Positions 3,275 to 21,968 are shown, numbered from the stretch's first letter. The stretch: 64,000 nucleotides of DNA from a phage (PZ386966.1); one strand, 5' to 3'. The notes: a model not told the origin generated them from the sequence alone. Numbers and translations: made by a program.

Positions 3275-3449
3275 TCAATGAATCTATGTTTGTAGCCCTA
3301 ACCTTTTCACGTTCATCGTTAAGATAATCATCAAGAGCCTTTTCAATCTGTGAATCATCTTGACAGATAACTGTAAAGATTGTAAAGCCGTCTGTATCAT
3401 CAATTATCTTACCATAACCGCTTCTGGGATGTAACTTTTTAAGAGCCAT
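3237..3449 (-). CDS. hypothetical protein
   Basis: 70 aa ORF, basic C-terminus. Confidence 0.3.
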   Translation of the reverse strand: MALKKLHPRSGYGKIIDDTDGFTIFTVICQDDSQIEKALDDYLNDEREKVRATNIDSLIDTSRKRKKKDE

Positions 3450-3450
3450 A

Positions 3451-3834
3451 TCAAATACCTGTGCAACTTCTGTTTTCTAAGAAATACTCAACACCATACA
3501 TAGCTTTTTGCATCAAATCTTCTTTAAACTGGATACGGTGGTTGAGCATAGCCTGTACATCAATATCATCACGGTGTTTCTCTTTAATATTTGCAGATTG
3601 CAGGAAATACTCTGCAAGAACGTGATACTGATAGTCAGTTACCTTATCAGTCATCTCTGTCAAAGATTCTTCAGAGATTGGTTTAAGTAGCTCACCATTA
3701 GCTAGAGCAACACCTTTTACAATCTGGCAAGTGTCTTCTGGAACACCTGATAAGTCCACATTTGGGAGTTCTGTTGCATTGACTGGTAAATTCATTGCCA
3801 TAACCATTGCAGCAGCTAATAAAATCTTTTTCAT
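3451..3834 (-). CDS. secreted protein with signal peptide
   Basis: N-terminal MKKILLAAAMVMAMNLPVNA signal-like sequence. Confidence 0.5.
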   Translation of the reverse strand: MKKILLAAAMVMAMNLPVNATELPNVDLSGVPEDTCQIVKGVALANGELLKPISEESLTEMTDKVTDYQYHVLAEYFLQSANIKEKHRDDIDVQAMLNHRIQFKEDLMQKAMYGVEYFLENRSCTGI

Positions 3835-4265
3835 AATGACCTCAAAGTTATATTGAATTTTGTATCACATTGAGTATAAAAATAAGCTATAACACCTGAC
3901 TTGTCAACAGACTTTATAGCTTATTTGGCAGATTTTTTATAAGGCTACTACCATCCTTCCATACCAGACTACACCATGCCAGACCAGACTTCACATCACC
4001 TTACCGTGCAATACATCACTTGAAAACCCTCTTAGAAGACTCTTAAGTGATGTTGGTGAGTACCCGTTGGTTTATGCTGCTCAGTATACTCACCAAATTT
4101 TCTATGTCAACAACTTTATATAAAAGTCCTGATAACTATATGCGTTACAAAACAGAAGATTGTGAACAAGACACCCATTGCAAAGGATGTGTTCAAAAGC
4201 TTACTTGCAACGTATGACAATACAAAGACAACCAGTATAAATAGAATGACTGTACTGAACATAGT

Positions 4266-6396: not shown

Positions 6397-6587
6397 TACT
6401 CAATGTCAATAAGTTCTTGTGCAATGCTTTTCAGATTACCTTTCAAGAAAACCTTCTCAGAACCTGAAAGAGATGAATTGTCAATTAACCTGTTCATTCT
6501 CTCAAACAACTTCTGCTTACGGTTCTTAATAGTTTCCTTTGAAGCACCTTTCATCATCGCTGCATGGGTTCTTCCACGGTGGCTCAT
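6378..6587 (-). CDS. hypothetical protein
   Basis: 69 aa basic ORF. Confidence 0.3.
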   Translation of the reverse strand: MSHRGRTHAAMMKGASKETIKNRKQKLFERMNRLIDNSSLSGSEKVFLKGNLKSIAQELIDIEYWRHQK

Positions 6588-6648
6588 AAGTCCTCCTATA
6601 TAAGATATAGTATAAGGTACTCTTCCATGAGCACCTTGTCAATACTAA

Positions 6649-7212
6649 TCAGTGTACCTCAAGCCAATTCTTACCAACTTTACCAGTACCAGTTACAAGC
6701 GTTTCCTCCTTAAGTCCTAAGTTTCTTGATGCCTGACCATACATCCAGTCAATCACTGCTTTAACATCTTGTGTCATCTCTTCTGGGCACTCCCAACTAT
6801 TCTCATCGTGGTATGCTAGAAGCAATCTAGCACCAATGGCTGGTTTTCGACCATTCAGCTTTGTAAGACCCTCTTCACAAGTTCTTCTACAAGCGAGGTT
6901 GATAGCTTCATTCTGAACCTGACTTTCCGAACCCATGAGCAAGTAATTTAAAAGTTTGTGCGGAGATTTACACCACAACCATGCACCTGCTACCTTTACA
7001 AAACCACCCTTAGATATTGCAGCAGTCTTACCAAACACCTCTTCAAGAGCCTTCTTAGTGGCTTTGAAGTCTGCTTCCAAATTATCTATCAACTTTTTAA
7101 TCTTAGGAAGGCGTACAAAGTAAGTTTGCTTAGTTAAAGCACCTTCTTCGGTTGTTGATGCTTTAATCGTCTTGGCAAACTTCTCATCACCTGCCCCAAA
7201 CAATACATCTGG
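6649..7212 (-). CDS. DNA polymerase, family A (T7-like), C-terminal segment (exon 2 or separate polypeptide)
   Basis: Begins ..VLFGAGDEKFAK matching T7 pol motif B (FLYGAGDEK); RLLLAYHDE resembles motif C; in-frame stop at 7213-7215 upstream. Confidence 0.75.
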   Translation of the reverse strand, partial: PDVLFGAGDEKFAKTIKASTTEEGALTKQTYFVRLPKIKKLIDNLEADFKATKKALEEVFGKTAAISKGGFVKVAGAWLWCKSPHKLLNYLLMGSESQVQNEAINLACRRTCEEGLTKLNGRKPAIGARLLLAYHDENSWECPEEMTQDVKAVIDWMYGQASRNLGLKEETLVTGTGKVGKNWLEVH

Positions 7213-8008
7213 TCAATACACTCGCAAGGTGTACCAGTTCTCTTATGAACTTCTCCGCATTTCTACGGAGTGTCGGACTATATCACGTAGTAGTAATACT
7301 ACCGTTGCACTTGGGAATGGTCATTAGCTTACCAACCTACTCTACTCAGTTCATACATTAAGTATGCTTTTCGATAGTCTCTGAACGTTTCTCTGTTAGG
7401 AATCTCTATAATCATGTTATTTACTCAGGTAGTCAATTGCCCTTTGCATATTATCAACGCTATCTGCAAGTAACCCTAAAGCCCTATTGCAATTGTGGCA
7501 CAACATACCTCTTACTTTTCCGGTTTTGTGGTCATGGTCAACGACAAGTTTAGCTTTATGCCGTGAACTATTCATGATAAAACCTTCACCGCCACAAATT
7601 TGACATTTGTAATCACAGTTGCGAAGTAGGTTTTCAACCTCTTCTCTTTCTAAACCATATGTTCTCAGGTAGTAATTCTTAACTCTACCTTTCTCTCCGC
7701 AATGTGAAGAACAATAAACTTGCCTTGCTGTTCTAGGCATGAACACCTTCTCACAGCTAGGACATTTCTTAGTAAGAACCCTATGTTCTGCTCTTCTGTC
7801 AAATTTTAATACGCAACTTCTGCACCGTTTTTGATTGTATTGGTATGGTTTAAACTCTGCACCACACTCAGTACACAATCTTTCTTTGTAACCTGCCATT
7901 GTCTCTCTCCTTTGCTTTAGGAGTCCTAACAGAGACTTCGCTGCTGATTACCATATCTTTACAGACTTAGGCTTCCAGCAATTCACAACGTTTTACATGC
8001 GCCACTGA
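7207..8008 (-). mobile_element. intervening sequence in DNA polymerase gene (putative group I intron) carrying an HNH endonuclease ORF
   Basis: Polymerase motif B is split across the flanks (..KNGIYA / LFGAGDEK); endonuclease ORF with its own strong RBS lies between; boundaries approximate. Confidence 0.5.
7417..7899 (-). CDS. HNH homing endonuclease
   Basis: HNH core ..VVDHDHKTGKVRGMLCHNCNRALG; AAGGAGAG RBS upstream; not in frame with polymerase N-terminal segment. Confidence 0.8.
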   Translation of the reverse strand: MAGYKERLCTECGAEFKPYQYNQKRCRSCVLKFDRRAEHRVLTKKCPSCEKVFMPRTARQVYCSSHCGEKGRVKNYYLRTYGLEREEVENLLRNCDYKCQICGGEGFIMNSSRHKAKLVVDHDHKTGKVRGMLCHNCNRALGLLADSVDNMQRAIDYLSK

Positions 8009-10150
8009 CGCATAAATGCCATTTTTGGCTTTCTTACGACCTTTGCTAATTTCTTGAAGAAGATTTGTATCCTGAGTGGCTCGACAGGTCAAGATGTCTT
8101 CCTCTTTATTAAGGCTGAAGTAAATACTATTTAAAGTATGCGCATCAGTTCCTGAGTACACCACGTACAAGTCATTTTCCGAATCATAATGCAAATACTT
8201 GTCAATCTCTGGGTTTAGATACTGGTCAAAATGTTTGCAATAGTATCTGCCATCATCTTGTTTGACAAACTCAACCTCTTCTTTACCCTCTGTTACTGCT
8301 TTAGTGAACTCTTTATCACCCATAAAGTTACACAGCAGTACAAGTTGCGCGCTATTCATATCTGCTGAAACAATATTAGTTCCCTCTTCACAAGTCCACA
8401 CCTCCCTCATAGGTGCTCCATAGACAGCAGCACCAGACGGTACGTTTACAATACCATATTGTGTCATACGTCCAGTTGAAGTACCAAACACCATTGCACC
8501 AGCACTAAGGCGACCATCAGGACGAATCTGGTTCAACCATCCTTTTTCATCATCCTTTGAGTTCTCAATAGTTCTGCGTCGGTGCATCAAAGTGTAGTAC
8601 TTAGCAATCTTCTGTCCAAGCTCACCTTCAATCGTATCATAAGATGATTCAGTAAGTTTTGGTGAAGTACGAATTAAGCAAGGTTCAAGTAAGTCTGTGT
8701 ACTTCTTAACAGACCAGTTATGCTCAATGTACTGGACACCTTCATGTTCAACATAGCTCAAGCCACAACGCTCAACCATCTCATCCCATTTAGGATGCTT
8801 GGTAATCATCTTTTTGTTGTCTTTGAAACGACAAACCTTAACAGGACGACCATCAGAGTCTTTCTTATAGTTCCAGTCATCAGGAATCCAACCAACTGAT
8901 TTCAAGTAGTCCTTCACAACAGCCACCTGAGTCATTCGAGAAACTTCAAACTCAATTGGTGTATATGGTGCATCAATCAAACCTGTGTAGCGACTTGACT
9001 CAAGTCCAAAGTGGTTAACAACATGACTGTTATAGTACTTCACAGTTTTAACTGTTTTTACTGGCTTCCAGTCTTTGCATTTCTTACCAATCTTTGCATT
9101 CAACTCGTTGCAAATTGCACGAGCATCCTTCATTGCTACAAAACCTTCCTTGTACTCTTCGCCAGTTACAGTGTTGGTTGGTGTATAGCAATTCCGCTTT
9201 TCAATGTTAAAAATCTTTGTAGTTGGCTTACCAAATGGCTTGATTTCATATGTCTGCATCTCACCGTTACGTACCTGCTGACGATACTTTGTCTTAGGGT
9301 ACTTGGTAATTCTTTTCAGTCCATCTGCATGACCAAACGCTTCAACATACTCATTCCAAGCTTTTGCAAACTCTTCTCCAGTGACTTTACCTTTGGTCTT
9401 AATAGTTGGTGGAAGGTGTGGTTCAACTTCTGAAGCAAGCTCATTAGTCAACTTGTCAAGTTCCTTTACATGGAACTCCATAAGCTCTTTATCAGCTTTC
9501 CAACCATTGATAGCCTGTTGACTCATCCAGAAAGATGTCTCTTTAGCTCGCATATAGGTTTCATAAGTGTCTATGCCACACTTCTTTAACTTGAGATATT
9601 CATTATCCAGTGCGCGTTTAGTTTTGGCGTTAATACGGATATCTTCTACAACACGAGTGAAGATTTCTGCATTCCACACACCCCAATGTTCAATCTCTGG
9701 TTTACGGACACCAACACGAGCACCCCATGCTGCCAAGCCATGAGCACCTTTATAGCCTTTTGGAGTTGGTCTATCCATCCACTGAACACGAGACTGGATA
9801 AGAGAGTCCTGAAAGAAATTACTCCACGGCTTACATTTTGGATTATCGAAGTTCCACAAATCAGGTGCAATATGATTGAAAACCCACCAGTCATACCCCA
9901 GACCATTATGGATACAAAGCCGTTTTGCCTTTAACGCAAACTCAATACCTTCACGTAAACCACCCTTAATGTACTTGGTATACTTGTGACCGAGGATAGG
10001 CTCATCTGTAAAGACCCATACAGGTGGCTCCTCATCGTCAGATTTATAGTCTGCGAAAGCCATGACGTGGACTTTAGTGAACTCAAGGAGTAAACCATCA
10101 GTTTCTGTATCACCAACTAAGTGTAAGTTTTTAAAATCTACGTTTTCCAT
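7970..10150 (-). CDS. DNA polymerase, family A (T7-like), N-terminal segment with 3'-5' exonuclease domain
   Basis: VGDTETDG exo motif; ends ..RKKAKNGIYA (T7 RDNAKTFIYG) then reads into the insertion to stop at 7967-7969; start at ATG 10148-10150 with GGGAG RBS. Confidence 0.8.
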
Positions 10151-10208
10151 TTGTACTCCCTCTAATTCGTTAACCCCATACATTACTGCAAAAAATTATA
10201 AAAAGCAA

Positions 10209-10232
10209 GTTGACAATGTACTTGACAAGGTG
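10209..10232 (+). promoter_or_regulatory. conserved promoter-like motif GTTGACAATGTACTTGACAAGGTG at divergent junction
   Basis: Two TTGACA hexamers 8 bp apart; near-identical copy at 56082-56105. Confidence 0.45.
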
Positions 10233-10406
10233 TTAATCTTTGCGAAGTGGGTTTTTACTTAAAAGGTTACTTAACAGTTTAACTATACAGACACTTTAAA
10301 ACTCTTAAAAGATTATTTAATAGCTTTTAAAAAGCTTTAAAGTATAACGTATAGAATACGTTAAGATAAAAGATTAAAACTTAATAGTTACTTAAAAGAG
10401 GCTTAC

Positions 10407-19052: not shown

Positions 19053-19356
19053 TAAAGAGGGTGTGGCTCAGAAGAGCCACTTCTCAAACTACAATATTTC
19101 TATGACGGTGTTTATGAATGACCCGTTACTTGAAAAGTATGGTGAGACTCCAGATACACTTCTGGATAATGAACAAGTTTTAAAAGCAGTCCTGTACAAA
19201 TACGGGATTGACATTGAGAAAGAGTATTCTTTTGAAATATGCCAACACAGGAATACTTTTGGTAAAGTTGTGATGGCTCCACTTTTTATGGGTGTAGAAA
19301 GGACTGACTACGGTTGGTTATATCTAAAAAGAAACTTGGAGAAATACCGTGTCTAA
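19024..19356 (+). CDS. hypothetical protein
   Basis: 110 aa ORF. Confidence 0.35.
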   Translation: MVIMDSQNINKEGVAQKSHFSNYNISMTVFMNDPLLEKYGETPDTLLDNEQVLKAVLYKYGIDIEKEYSFEICQHRNTFGKVVMAPLFMGVERTDYGWLYLKRNLEKYRV

Positions 19357-19687
19357 AGCAAAAAAGCTATCTTATGATGACATTATCTCAGGTGTTAAGT
19401 TAGGTGTTGACAGCATCGGACAAGACGTTAAGCACGGAGACACAGTTATGTACTGTGATGACCGAAGAGGGAGAAGTGCAATCTTGTTTGGAAGAATTGT
19501 TTGCAAGATGCGAGGTAATTACGTTGTTGCAGACATGGATGTGAACGTTACACAAAAACTTGAAACAATTACGGATAATAATACATCATCATGGTTCTCC
19601 CTGAACTGTATGCACACTTCTTCAGTCACAAAAGTAAGTGATAAGTTTTACGATATGTGGCAGAATGAGCAAATTTTCAAGATTTAA
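19349..19687 (+). CDS. hypothetical protein
   Basis: 112 aa ORF. Confidence 0.35.
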   Translation: MSKAKKLSYDDIISGVKLGVDSIGQDVKHGDTVMYCDDRRGRSAILFGRIVCKMRGNYVVADMDVNVTQKLETITDNNTSSWFSLNCMHTSSVTKVSDKFYDMWQNEQIFKI

Positions 19688-19692
19688 ACTAG

Positions 19693-19716
19693 GGAGCCTC
19701 TTCGGAGGCTCTTTTC
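19693..19716 (+). terminator. intrinsic terminator
   Basis: GAGCCTC-TTCG-GAGGCTC hairpin then TTTTC. Confidence 0.6.
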
Positions 19717-19733
19717 ATCTGTAGGATTCGAAA

Positions 19734-21968
19734 ATGATTAAGACAATTAAAAAATCAAATGGTACAGTAGTAAGCTTTGACCCAGAAAGACCGAATAAGT
19801 GGGCGTCATGGGCAGATAAACATGGAATTATCTGGTCAGAAGTCACTATGGAAGCTGTGAAACGTGTTTATGAAGGATGCACCACAAAAGAGATGCACCA
19901 AGCCATGATTGATGTTTGTGTTGATAAACAAACTCAAGAGTACTCAGAGATGGCTGGACGGCTACTTTTGGGTATCATCTACAAAGAAGCCTTTGGAGGC
20001 TTTACTAAGGTTCCTACGCTGGTTACCTTTGTTAAAAATATGGAGAGAGCAGGACTTTGGGAGAAGATGGATTATTCACAGGAAGAGCTTGAATACCTGC
20101 AAGGTTACATCGTACACTCAAAAGATATCTCTTACGGTTATGCAGTCTTGAAACAGTTCAGAGACAAGTATGGTATCCGTGATATTAAAACTGGAAGACT
20201 TTTTGAGTCACCACAGTTTATGTTTATGGGTATGGCTATGAAAGCCTTTGAGAAGCAACCAAAGCACCGTAGACTGCAAGATGTTATCAAGCTGTACACT
20301 TACCTGTCTGACCTGAAGATTAATGCTCCTACACCTTATTTAAACGGTTTAAGAGCCACCAAGTCAGGCTATGCGTCATGCTGTTTGATTAAGGCAAATG
20401 ATACTGCTGAGTCCCTCGGTATTGCTGCAAAGGTTGCTTATGATATGACCACAAAGCAAGCTGGTATTGGTATGCTGATGGAGACACGTACCATTGGTGA
20501 TGGTATCCGTCAAAATACGATTGAGCACATGGGTAAACTACCTTATTACAAGCTTGTACGCTCATCTGTAGAGGCAAACAAACAGAAGAGTCGTGGTGGT
20601 TCAGCTAATAACTTCTACACTGCTCTAGACCCGCAGATTGAAGATTTACTGCGTTTGAAGCACCCTACAACGGTTCCTTCTAAACGTATTAATGAGATGG
20701 ACTACTCATTCGGCACAAACGATTATTTCTGGCAGTGTGTTCAGTATGATACAGATTGGTTGCTATTCTCTTACAAAGATGCACCAAAACTCTATGACAT
20801 GTTCTACACAGCATCTGCTGATGAGTTTGCTATGGCAGTTGGTCACGCAGTACATTCAGGAGTTAAGCACAGACGAGTCAAGGCTCGTGAAATTGCTAAG
20901 CTGTTTATTCAGCAGCGTTATGCTACAGGTCGTGTGTATCCATTCTTCACTAACAATGCAAACACACATACACCATTTAAAGAGCCTTTGAAGATGTCAA
21001 ATCTTTGTATGGAAATTGTGTTGCCAGTGTATGGTTTTGAGAAAGAGACAGACCTTTACAGAGATGATGCTGTGAAAGAGGATGGTGAGGTGGCTCTTTG
21101 CTTCCTAGCTAGTTTGGTTGCAGGGAGAATTTCAGAAGATGAATACGCTGACGTTGCTTATTATGCTCTTGCAATGGTTGACTCCGTTATTGACCTTATG
21201 GATTATCCGTATCCGTCGATGCGTAACCATGTTCAGAAGCGTCGTTCTGTTGGGATTGGCCTTACAAATGTGGCTCATTACCTTGCGAAGAACTATGTGA
21301 ACTACTCTTCACGAGCAGGTAAGACGAAGCTTCATGAACTTGCAGAGATGCACTCTTACTATCTGCATGAAGCCTCTCTGAGACTGGCTAAAGAGCGTGG
21401 TGTTCCAGAATACATGAAGTTCACTAAGTATCCTGAAGGCTGGGTTCCTCCAAAGACAGCTAACAAGAAAATTGATGAAAAGCATGATGCAAAACTACGA
21501 TATGATTGGGATGACTTAGCACAACGTATCAAAGAAAATGGTGGAATCCGAAACTCTGTATTAGAAGCTTACATGCCTAATGAGAGTTCTTCACTAGCAA
21601 CTAATACGACAAATGGCTTGTATCCAATTCGTGACTTTATTTTAACTAAAAAGTCTGCAACTGGTAACGTACTGTTTATTGTTCCAGATTATGAAGAGTT
21701 GAAGTATGTCTATGAAATTGCTTGGGATATTGACACCTTTGATATGATTGATTGTTATGCAATTGTTCAAAAGTTCACTGGTCAAGCTATCTCTTCAGAC
21801 TTCTATGTTGACTATGCAAAGTCTAAGAAGGTATCATTGTCTCAAGCTTTGAAGTACATGATTTATGCCAACTCGGTAGGTATGAAAACCATGTACTACC
21901 TTAACAGTCGCATTGGTGTAGGTAAATCTGCACTGCAAGATGCTTATTGCGAGGGTTGTGGTGTTTAG
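19734..21968 (+). CDS. nrdA: ribonucleoside-diphosphate reductase large subunit (class I)
   Basis: 744 aa; catalytic-site NLCMEIVLP motif. Confidence 0.85.
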   Translation: MIKTIKKSNGTVVSFDPERPNKWASWADKHGIIWSEVTMEAVKRVYEGCTTKEMHQAMIDVCVDKQTQEYSEMAGRLLLGIIYKEAFGGFTKVPTLVTFVKNMERAGLWEKMDYSQEELEYLQGYIVHSKDISYGYAVLKQFRDKYGIRDIKTGRLFESPQFMFMGMAMKAFEKQPKHRRLQDVIKLYTYLSDLKINAPTPYLNGLRATKSGYASCCLIKANDTAESLGIAAKVAYDMTTKQAGIGMLMETRTIGDGIRQNTIEHMGKLPYYKLVRSSVEANKQKSRGGSANNFYTALDPQIEDLLRLKHPTTVPSKRINEMDYSFGTNDYFWQCVQYDTDWLLFSYKDAPKLYDMFYTASADEFAMAVGHAVHSGVKHRRVKAREIAKLFIQQRYATGRVYPFFTNNANTHTPFKEPLKMSNLCMEIVLPVYGFEKETDLYRDDAVKEDGEVALCFLASLVAGRISEDEYADVAYYALAMVDSVIDLMDYPYPSMRNHVQKRRSVGIGLTNVAHYLAKNYVNYSSRAGKTKLHELAEMHSYYLHEASLRLAKERGVPEYMKFTKYPEGWVPPKTANKKIDEKHDAKLRYDWDDLAQRIKENGGIRNSVLEAYMPNESSSLATNTTNGLYPIRDFILTKKSATGNVLFIVPDYEELKYVYEIAWDIDTFDMIDCYAIVQKFTGQAISSDFYVDYAKSKKVSLSQALKYMIYANSVGMKTMYYLNSRIGVGKSALQDAYCEGCGV

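Follow-up and report, generated by a model that had tools for sequence, protein, structure and literature searches.

How is a functional DNA polymerase made from a gene that is broken within motif B? This question is raised by the minus strand of a 64,000-nucleotide stretch of phage DNA (PZ386966.1, hereafter the window), where the two parts of a T7-type polymerase are encoded by separate open reading frames (ORFs), with an endonuclease gene in the gap between them. A preliminary description of the sequence had offered two explanations, a group I intron that splices itself and carries a homing endonuclease, or a polymerase made as two polypeptides, and had favoured splicing. Here we analysed the exons, the insertion and the alleles of related phages. 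We conclude that the segment 8007..7206 is very probably a mobile, IA2-like group I intron in the family A polymerase gene of a Felix O1-like phage (genus Felixounavirus).

The interrupted polymerase gene and its uninterrupted relatives

The upstream ORF (10183..7967, minus strand) encodes a product that reads ...GRKKAKNGIYA and then continues for 13 further codons (SVAHVKRCELLEA) to a TAA stop, while the downstream ORF (7203..6649, minus strand) starts at a TTG and reads (L)FGAGDEKFAK.... Joined at the junction described below, the exons form a 910-aa ORF without an internal stop. The polymerase belongs to family A (Pfam DNA_pol_A, 59.1 bits), and the C-terminal 190 residues of the joined product align to T7 DNA polymerase from residue 517 on. 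In this alignment the counterpart of RKKAKNGIYALLF is T7 R518-Y530, the stretch that makes up motif B (O helix), and the break falls between T7 G527 and F528. The ORF list, the sequence and the T7 alignment therefore bear out a split in motif B, with both ORFs where the preliminary description had placed them. The range that it gave extends to 10183, an alternative in-frame ATG, but homologues are annotated from ATG 10150, which is preceded by a GAGGGAG Shine-Dalgarno sequence and opens a 2184-nt ORF.

The downstream segment does not resemble an independent gene in its start region. As had been noted before, it begins at a TTG and lacks a Shine-Dalgarno sequence (none within 15 nt upstream of TTG 7203); it also has no in-frame ATG, and the sole nearby ATG (7209) is out of frame. 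The TTG is simply an in-frame Leu codon. A promoter and terminator scan of 6400-10400 gave nothing above chance, and no separate promoter is indicated for the endonuclease gene or exon 2.

The boundaries of the insertion were fixed by comparison with alleles that lack it. A query made of 400 nt of exon 1 ending at U8008 and 400 nt of exon 2 from U7205 was searched against the phage collection. At least 80% of this joined-exon query was covered by 301 of the 303 matching records, and most among the matches listed align in a single colinear block, 800 nt against 800 nt. In about 200 related phages, Felix O1 and Henu11 among them, the polymerase gene is uninterrupted and matches the joined exons colinearly along 800/800 nt; the pattern is far beyond chance. 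In a multiple alignment the insertion-free alleles read TAT or TAC, GCC CTG, TTG or TTA, and TT at this point (Y-A-L-L-F). The window reads TAT GCG T, then 802 nt, then TA TTG TTT, again Y-A-L-L-F, giving the protein ...NGIYA/LLFGAGDEK as in the insertion-free relatives (slashes mark the junction here and below). Since both read Y-A-L-L-F, the insertion is exactly 802 nt (8007..7206, minus strand), with junctions after U8008 and after G7206. Among in-frame excisions, only this one gives a U before the 5' splice site, an intron-final G and the Leu of the uninterrupted alleles. Intron-less homologues, proposed earlier as a check, thus exist and fix the junction, and they correct one detail: the joined reading had been given as ...IYA-V-LFGAG, whereas true ligation yields ...IYA-L-LFGAG, and the V (GUA) arose only because the final base of the intron was translated as well.

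The splice-site context is identical in 12/12 Felixounavirus variants. When the same splice-site rules were applied blind to phage LUZ24, they returned 19143-19811, the boundaries observed in cDNA of an intron that is spliced in vivo (PMC10914365). For Felix O1 itself, the genome paper lists no introns (PMC3185647), which is correct because this phage is without the present one.

A conserved group I ribozyme within the insertion

Covariance models place the insertion among group I introns. On the window itself, Rfam RF00028 gives a partial match at 7984..7848 (model positions 56-151, P3-P6; 28.1 bits, E=8e-5) and a second piece of 15.9 bits. Orthologous introns without the endonuclease ORF, from phages REP7 and NJ12, match the full model at 59.2 and 60.3 bits (E ~1e-13), above its gathering score of 50, and the ribozyme parts of the window are 95-100% identical to these ORF-less copies. 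The core elements named in the preliminary description, P3-P7 and the terminal G, are present, and so is a U·G pair at the 5' splice site. Together with the Rfam matches and the insertion-free homologues, they support the group I assignment and suggest that the transcript is spliced.

The helices in Table 1 were taken from Rfam alignments, from unconstrained minimum free energy (MFE) folds of the ORF-less copies and from inspection, and were mapped to window coordinates. The Rfam alignment spans the block 7942..7990 at high posterior probability, and the MFE fold of the ORF-less copies yields the same helices. These unconstrained folds recover P3-P9.1, including P7.1 and P7.2. Rfam also placed a "P1/P2" in exon sequence of the ORF-less orthologues, which is spurious, and P1 was re-derived by hand; all six of its pairs are kept in 12/12 variants. 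By inspection, a 5-bp P10 can be drawn between CAGUG (8007-8003) in the loop of P1 and UAUUG (7205-7201) at the beginning of exon 2. The window intron has no P2. The presence of P7.1 and P7.2 between P7 and the P3 3' strand is the IA2 signature, and the Pf-WMP3 intron likewise has no P2 (PMC3428280). The intron is IA2-like by its P7.1 and P7.2, assigned by inspection rather than with a subgroup-specific model.

The structure is conserved across the genus. Over 12 Felixounavirus variants, the 81-pair map (P1, P3-P9.2) has standard pairs in 99.8% of 947 cells; when the 3' partners were slid by 1-3 columns as a control, 25-43% remained paired. Compensatory U-A to C-G changes occur in P6a (3 variants) and P8 (5 variants), and every one-sided change still pairs. 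In FSL SP-107 (L130) the P8 hairpin loop carries a 6-nt TACTAC duplication; P8 is a short TAC repeat for which alternative registers are possible. The flanking 400-nt exon segments of the window are 77-81% identical to those of REP7, SP-012 and NJ12, and the non-coding intron parts are 95-100% identical. The ribozyme is more conserved than the exons and the ORF, so the non-coding flanks are constrained as RNA and are not neutral spacer. A ribozyme this uniform amid diverged exons and ORF suggests either extreme constraint on the RNA or else that the ribozyme has been exchanged or homogenised independently of the ORF.

The consensus strings of J6/7-P7 and P7' (GUUCAGAGACUA ... GAUAUAGUCC) are not confined to this genus. 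A pattern scan of IMG/VR found them in at least 120 other viral contigs as generic IA2-type introns, with one Felixounavirus only among the matches listed (Si3, L075). Polymerase genes among the contigs listed have introns at other sites, and the scan added no covariation diversity.

From this anatomy a splicing pathway can be proposed. The polymerase gene would be transcribed as one pre-mRNA, in which the intron would fold into P1 and P3-P9 with P7.1/P7.2 and no P2. Free guanosine would attack after U8008, in the U·G wobble of P1; P10 would then align exon 2, and the 3'-OH of exon 1 would attack after the terminal G7206. The ligated mRNA, ...UAU GCG U/UA UUG UUU..., would encode an uninterrupted polymerase, 899 to 910 aa long, in which the O helix is intact (...RKKAKNGIYALLFGAGDEK...).

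Table 1 Coordinates of the polymerase exons, the intron, its helices and the enclosed gene, as window positions; a slash marks a junction.
Feature	Position	Strand	Details
DNA polymerase exon 1	8008..10150	minus	Ends at U8008, base 1 of a Leu codon; from ORF list, homologue annotation and insertion-free alleles
DNA polymerase exon 2	6649..7205	minus	Begins UA UUG UUU GGG..., UA being Leu codon bases 2-3; stop TGA at 6651-6649
Group I intron, IA2-like, 802 nt	7206..8007	minus	Starts CAGUGGCGCAUG..., ends ...CCAGAUG with terminal G 7206; from colinearity, Rfam and helix map
Predicted ligated-exon junction		minus	...AUUUAUGCGU / UAUUGUUUGGG...; exons joined
Intron-less junction, Felix O1 / Henu11			...AATGGCATCTACGCC / CTGTTATTTGG...
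Predicted homing endonuclease gene, 160 aa	7417..7899	minus	Frame differs from upstream ORF; GGAG Shine-Dalgarno at 7910-7907, 7 nt before ATG
P1	7997..8013	minus	Exon AUGCGU (8013-8008) with guide GCGCAU (8002-7997); U8008·G7997 wobble at the 5' splice site
P3 5' strand and P4	7942..7990	minus	P3 5' strand 7990-7984; P4 7980-7975 with 7947-7942; from Rfam, MFE and pair counts
P5 and P5a		minus	P5 7972-7970 with 7952-7950; P5a 7966-7963 with 7958-7955, GUAA tetraloop
P6 and P6a	7385..7941	minus	P6 7941-7939 with 7387-7385; P6a, 12 bp, 7935-7924 with 7401-7390; endonuclease gene in P6a loop
P7	7276..7379	minus	7379-7374 with 7281-7276, GACUAU with AUAGUC
P7.1		minus	7366-7362 with 7356-7352; inside P7
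P7.2		minus	7334-7331 with 7321-7318, plus G/C extension; GUA before P7.2; inside P7
P3 3' strand and P8		minus	P3 3' strand 7309-7303; P8 7302-7297 with 7292-7287; inside P7
P9 and P9.1	7206..7270	minus	P9 7270-7264 with 7259-7253, GAAA loop; P9.1 7250-7247 with 7240-7237
P9.2		minus	7236-7229 with 7221-7210, then GAUG with terminal G 7206

The endonuclease gene and the allele classes of Felixounavirus

The gene enclosed in the intron lies wholly inside the P6a loop. Its product matches Pfam Endonuclease_7 (PF02945; 70.9 bits against a cut-off of 23.6, residues 79-159) and phrog_307 "endonuclease VII" (E=3e-42). The C-terminal half has the pattern CX2C...DHDH...R...CX2C-N with all DHHRN and zinc-ligand residues (CQICGGEGF...VVDHDHKTGKVRGMLCHNCNRALG..., CHNCN), and the N-terminal half contains two extra CxxC pairs. 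The DHHRN family of homing endonucleases was defined around F-CphI, and proteins of the "endonuclease clade" carry the Endo VII motif in C-terminal position (PMC6083498). The product is thus a predicted Endo VII-motif (DHHRN) His-Me endonuclease. The label "HNH" used in the preliminary description holds in the broad sense of a His-Me finger, but the family is Endonuclease_7. We found no paralogue elsewhere in the window.

Within clades of this ORF, dS is ~0.5 and dN ~0.017, a dN/dS of ~0.03; between its two clades nucleotide identity is 76% and synonymous sites are saturated. The low dN/dS indicates that the ORF encodes a protein still under selection. The 160-aa protein would be translated from its own ribosome-binding site. 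Translational brakes are described for T4 intron ORFs, and here CUCC (7923-7920) can pair with the GGAG Shine-Dalgarno sequence as a possible brake of such kind; this is a weak local-fold prediction of 4-5 bp that competes with P6a, and we do not rely on it.

Over 6500-10300 the window shares 88-96% identity with more than 90 Felix O1-like myovirus genomes, with the best matches (~95.8%) in LNA6, LinBro, SBA-1781, Si3 and BPS15Q2. Elsewhere in the window, a cluster of 23 tRNA genes (58267-63553, plus strand) is typical of Felix O1-like phages; 22 tRNA genes are reported for Felix O1 (PMC3185647). The same intron, orthologous and without essential difference except that U7335 is unique to the window, is present in JH2, EC6, FSL SP-010, SP-012 and SP-107, Si3, VpaE1, LinBro and others.

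Many sister phages have shorter insertions at the same place. Introns without an ORF measure 268 nt in REP7 and 311 nt in NJ12. In NJ12 and EC106 (311 nt) precisely the ORF and its ribosome-binding site are gone and the flanking loop sequence is kept, while the minimal introns of 267-268 nt (REP7, A126, SUT_S820) close P6a with a 4-nt loop. In VpaE1 (L135, 209-669), a 22-nt deletion splits the endonuclease ORF in two. Alleles with no intron, an ORF-less intron, an intact ORF and a broken ORF therefore occur in one genus, and these represent every stage of the homing cycle. In a mixed infection, the endonuclease would most likely cut or nick intron-less polymerase alleles near the insertion site, and recombinational repair would copy the intron and the endonuclease gene into the cut allele.

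In REP7 (L002, from 1529), NJ12 (L005, from 1568), Felix O1 (ORF218; L004, from 1239), Henu11 (L001, from 1257) and Si3 (L007, 4011-4364), the 3' end of the polymerase gene is directly followed by a free-standing HNH or homing-endonuclease gene. The window has no such gene in 6400-6648, where a 69-aa ORF follows the polymerase instead. These 3'-flank genes could be a second homing system aimed at the region of the polymerase gene, or could act in trans as partners of the ORF-less introns. Felix O1-like polymerase sequence is also found in records named "Campylobacter phage A126/A132" (MG065668, which is L132, and MG065664; both UNVERIFIED) and "Staphylococcus phage SA1" (GU169904), two of them with the intron. 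These records are probably contaminated or mislabelled assemblies.

Alternative readings, significance and known polymerase introns

An unspliced gene in pieces has a precedent in NrdA, which is split by mobE in phage Aeh1. Here, two fragments would assemble after translation, one N-terminal with the exonuclease and palm and with ...IYASVAHVKRCELLEA at its end, the other C-terminal and started at TTG 7203. Both pieces are open reading frames, and GenBank records and a genome announcement speak of "two genes encoding DNA polymerases" around an endonuclease VII gene (PMC5968733). The break, however, cuts through the O helix, and for a start exon 2 offers only an in-frame Leu codon without a Shine-Dalgarno sequence. 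A group I ribozyme can be recognised in the spacer and is better conserved than the coding exons, and deleting exactly 802 nt restores the protein of the insertion-free alleles. With the related LUZ24 intron also spliced in vivo, we regard a two-piece polymerase as very improbable. An endonuclease gene in a conserved motif of an essential gene is typical of inteins and of free-standing homing-endonuclease insertions too, but the sequence excludes an intein, as it does a group II intron and a bare endonuclease cassette that has no ribozyme. The preliminary description had already argued against an intein from the reading frames, and rightly: the polymerase frame meets a TAA 13 codons into the insertion, and the endonuclease ORF is read in another frame and has a ribosome-binding site of its own. 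A Pfam search also found no Hint domain. Neither Rfam nor Pfam gave a group II or reverse-transcriptase signal, and the ~320 nt outside the ORF are group I ribozyme rather than cassette.

The intron might instead splice but be immobile, with its ORF domesticated as a maturase-like splicing helper or as a resolvase or repair nuclease, and be inherited vertically with occasional loss. In favour of this view, the purifying selection on the ORF is strong over a deep synonymous divergence (dN/dS ~0.03), which the classical homing-cycle model would not predict for an element that has become fixed, and Endo VII-motif proteins include Holliday-junction resolvases (PMC6083498). Against domestication, the no-intron, ORF-less and broken-ORF alleles coexist in closely related phages, so that homing targets exist and selection for mobility is plausible. 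ORF-less copies also mean that the ORF is dispensable for splicing. In addition, the C-terminal position of the Endo VII motif agrees with the "endonuclease clade" of Fang et al., and the nearest relatives of the ORF are those of other polymerase introns (LUZ24, Kpp-61). On balance, an immobile intron appears unlikely.

Several points nevertheless weigh against the mobile group I intron that we favour. No experimental account of splicing, and no RNA data, was found in the literature for any Felixounavirus, for which reason splicing is inferred here; the activity of the endonuclease, its target site and the mobility of the intron are likewise predictions. Both pieces of the Rfam match on the window fall below the RF00028 gathering score of 50 bits, because the ~520-nt ORF-bearing P6a loop splits the model. 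Covariation is thin (2/81 pairs doubly changed) because there is so little variation in the ribozyme, and it was from the same sequences that the structure was worked out. Finally, U7335 in the P7.2 5' strand, the only ribozyme base unique to the window (G in 11 relatives), slightly weakens this peripheral helix.

The element has been flagged in passing in sister phages. The intron-encoded ORFs listed by Fang et al. (2018) include those of JH2, EC6 and FSL SP-010, with accessions in the supplement (PMC6083498), and sequence comparison makes these orthologues of the window ORF. We found no literature description of the structure, insertion site or splicing of the present intron, which is an ordinary kind of phage selfish element and involves no new principle. 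The GenBank records inspected annotate two "DNA polymerase" CDSs with an "endonuclease VII" or "endonuclease" CDS between them, and none annotates an intron. About 100 Felixounavirus records, many of them from candidates for therapy or biocontrol, would thus hold one intron-containing polymerase gene rather than two, and annotation as a joined CDS would correct gene counts, core-genome analyses and polymerase phylogenies. The four allele classes in one genus also offer a tidy natural system for study of the homing cycle and of the little-studied DHHRN family of homing endonucleases.

Self-splicing, homing group I (IA2) introns are known in the polymerase genes of SPO1, SP82 and Bastille (I-HmuI, I-HmuII, I-BasI), Pf-WMP3 (I-PfoP3I), phiL7 and PhiI/W31 (I-TslI). 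The window intron resembles these classical examples in its IA2 features, its His-Me/HNH-type endonuclease and its position in a conserved motif of a family A polymerase gene. Their endonucleases are classical HNH proteins, whereas that of the window is of the Endo VII/DHHRN type. Polymerase introns are usually assigned to sites 674, 676 and 881 in E. coli Pol I numbering (PMC3428280); by our own mapping through the motif B alignment, the window site is at ~763/764, and a motif B (O-helix) site is thus documented beside the usual three.

The LUZ24 intron is also within motif B of a T7-type family A polymerase gene and obeys the same splice-site rules, exon 1 ending in U and the intron in G, and its gp35 is an Endo VII-motif endonuclease 51% identical to the window ORF (E=4e-42). 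It differs in lying 6 nt (two codons) upstream, at T/AT of a Tyr codon rather than T/TA of a Leu codon, in its length (669 nt vs 802 nt) and in its podovirus host (Bruynoghevirus), and the two ribozymes are not alignable by BLAST. The Felix O1 polymerase is most similar to PaP3/LUZ24-type polymerases (PMC3185647).

The closest relatives of the window intron are that of LUZ24 and that of the T7-like Klebsiella phage Kpp-61 (L129), whose 671-nt intron (3322-3992) occupies exactly the homologous site and codon phase (...TTT ATA TAT GCG T/...G/TT TTA TAT GGC, FIYA/FLYGSG). Its joined polymerase is 848 aa without an internal stop, although the record annotates two polymerase CDSs. The arrangement of exon end and guide (TATGCGT and GGCGCATG), the P1 and guide sequence GGCGCAUGUAAAAC, the P9.1 sequence AGUUCAUAAGAGAAC and part of P9.2 are shared with the window, and the endonuclease (ORF16) is 49% identical. 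Kpp-61 differs in its host family (Autographiviridae) and in a more compact core in which the ORF reaches P7; the remaining ribozyme is ~73-79% alignable. Because of an overlap between ORF and core, the Rfam score of this intron is only 25.3 bits. Two further ORFs from T7-like Yersinia phages, Berlin and YpP-G, are intron-encoded according to Fang et al. (PMC6083498).

These likenesses may reflect a single lineage of motif B polymerase introns with Endo VII-type endonucleases that moves across phage families. It would have reached the same site in Felix O1-like myoviruses and in Klebsiella and Yersinia T7-like podoviruses through cross-family homing into the O-helix sequence. Within Felixounavirus the ribozyme would in addition be exchanged or homogenised apart from the ORF, and ORF-less copies would be mobilised in trans by the 3'-end HNH genes ("collaborative homing"). 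We put this larger scenario forward tentatively and think it rather doubtful as a whole. Collaborative homing is the arrangement of F-CphI and the psbA intron of cyanophage S-PM2. F-CphI, the founding member of the DHHRN family, shares with the window endonuclease the C-terminal pattern CX2C...DHDH...R...CX2C-N (PMC6083498). The F-CphI gene, however, is free-standing beside an ORF-less intron, whereas the gene in the window is carried within the intron, in the loop of P6a.

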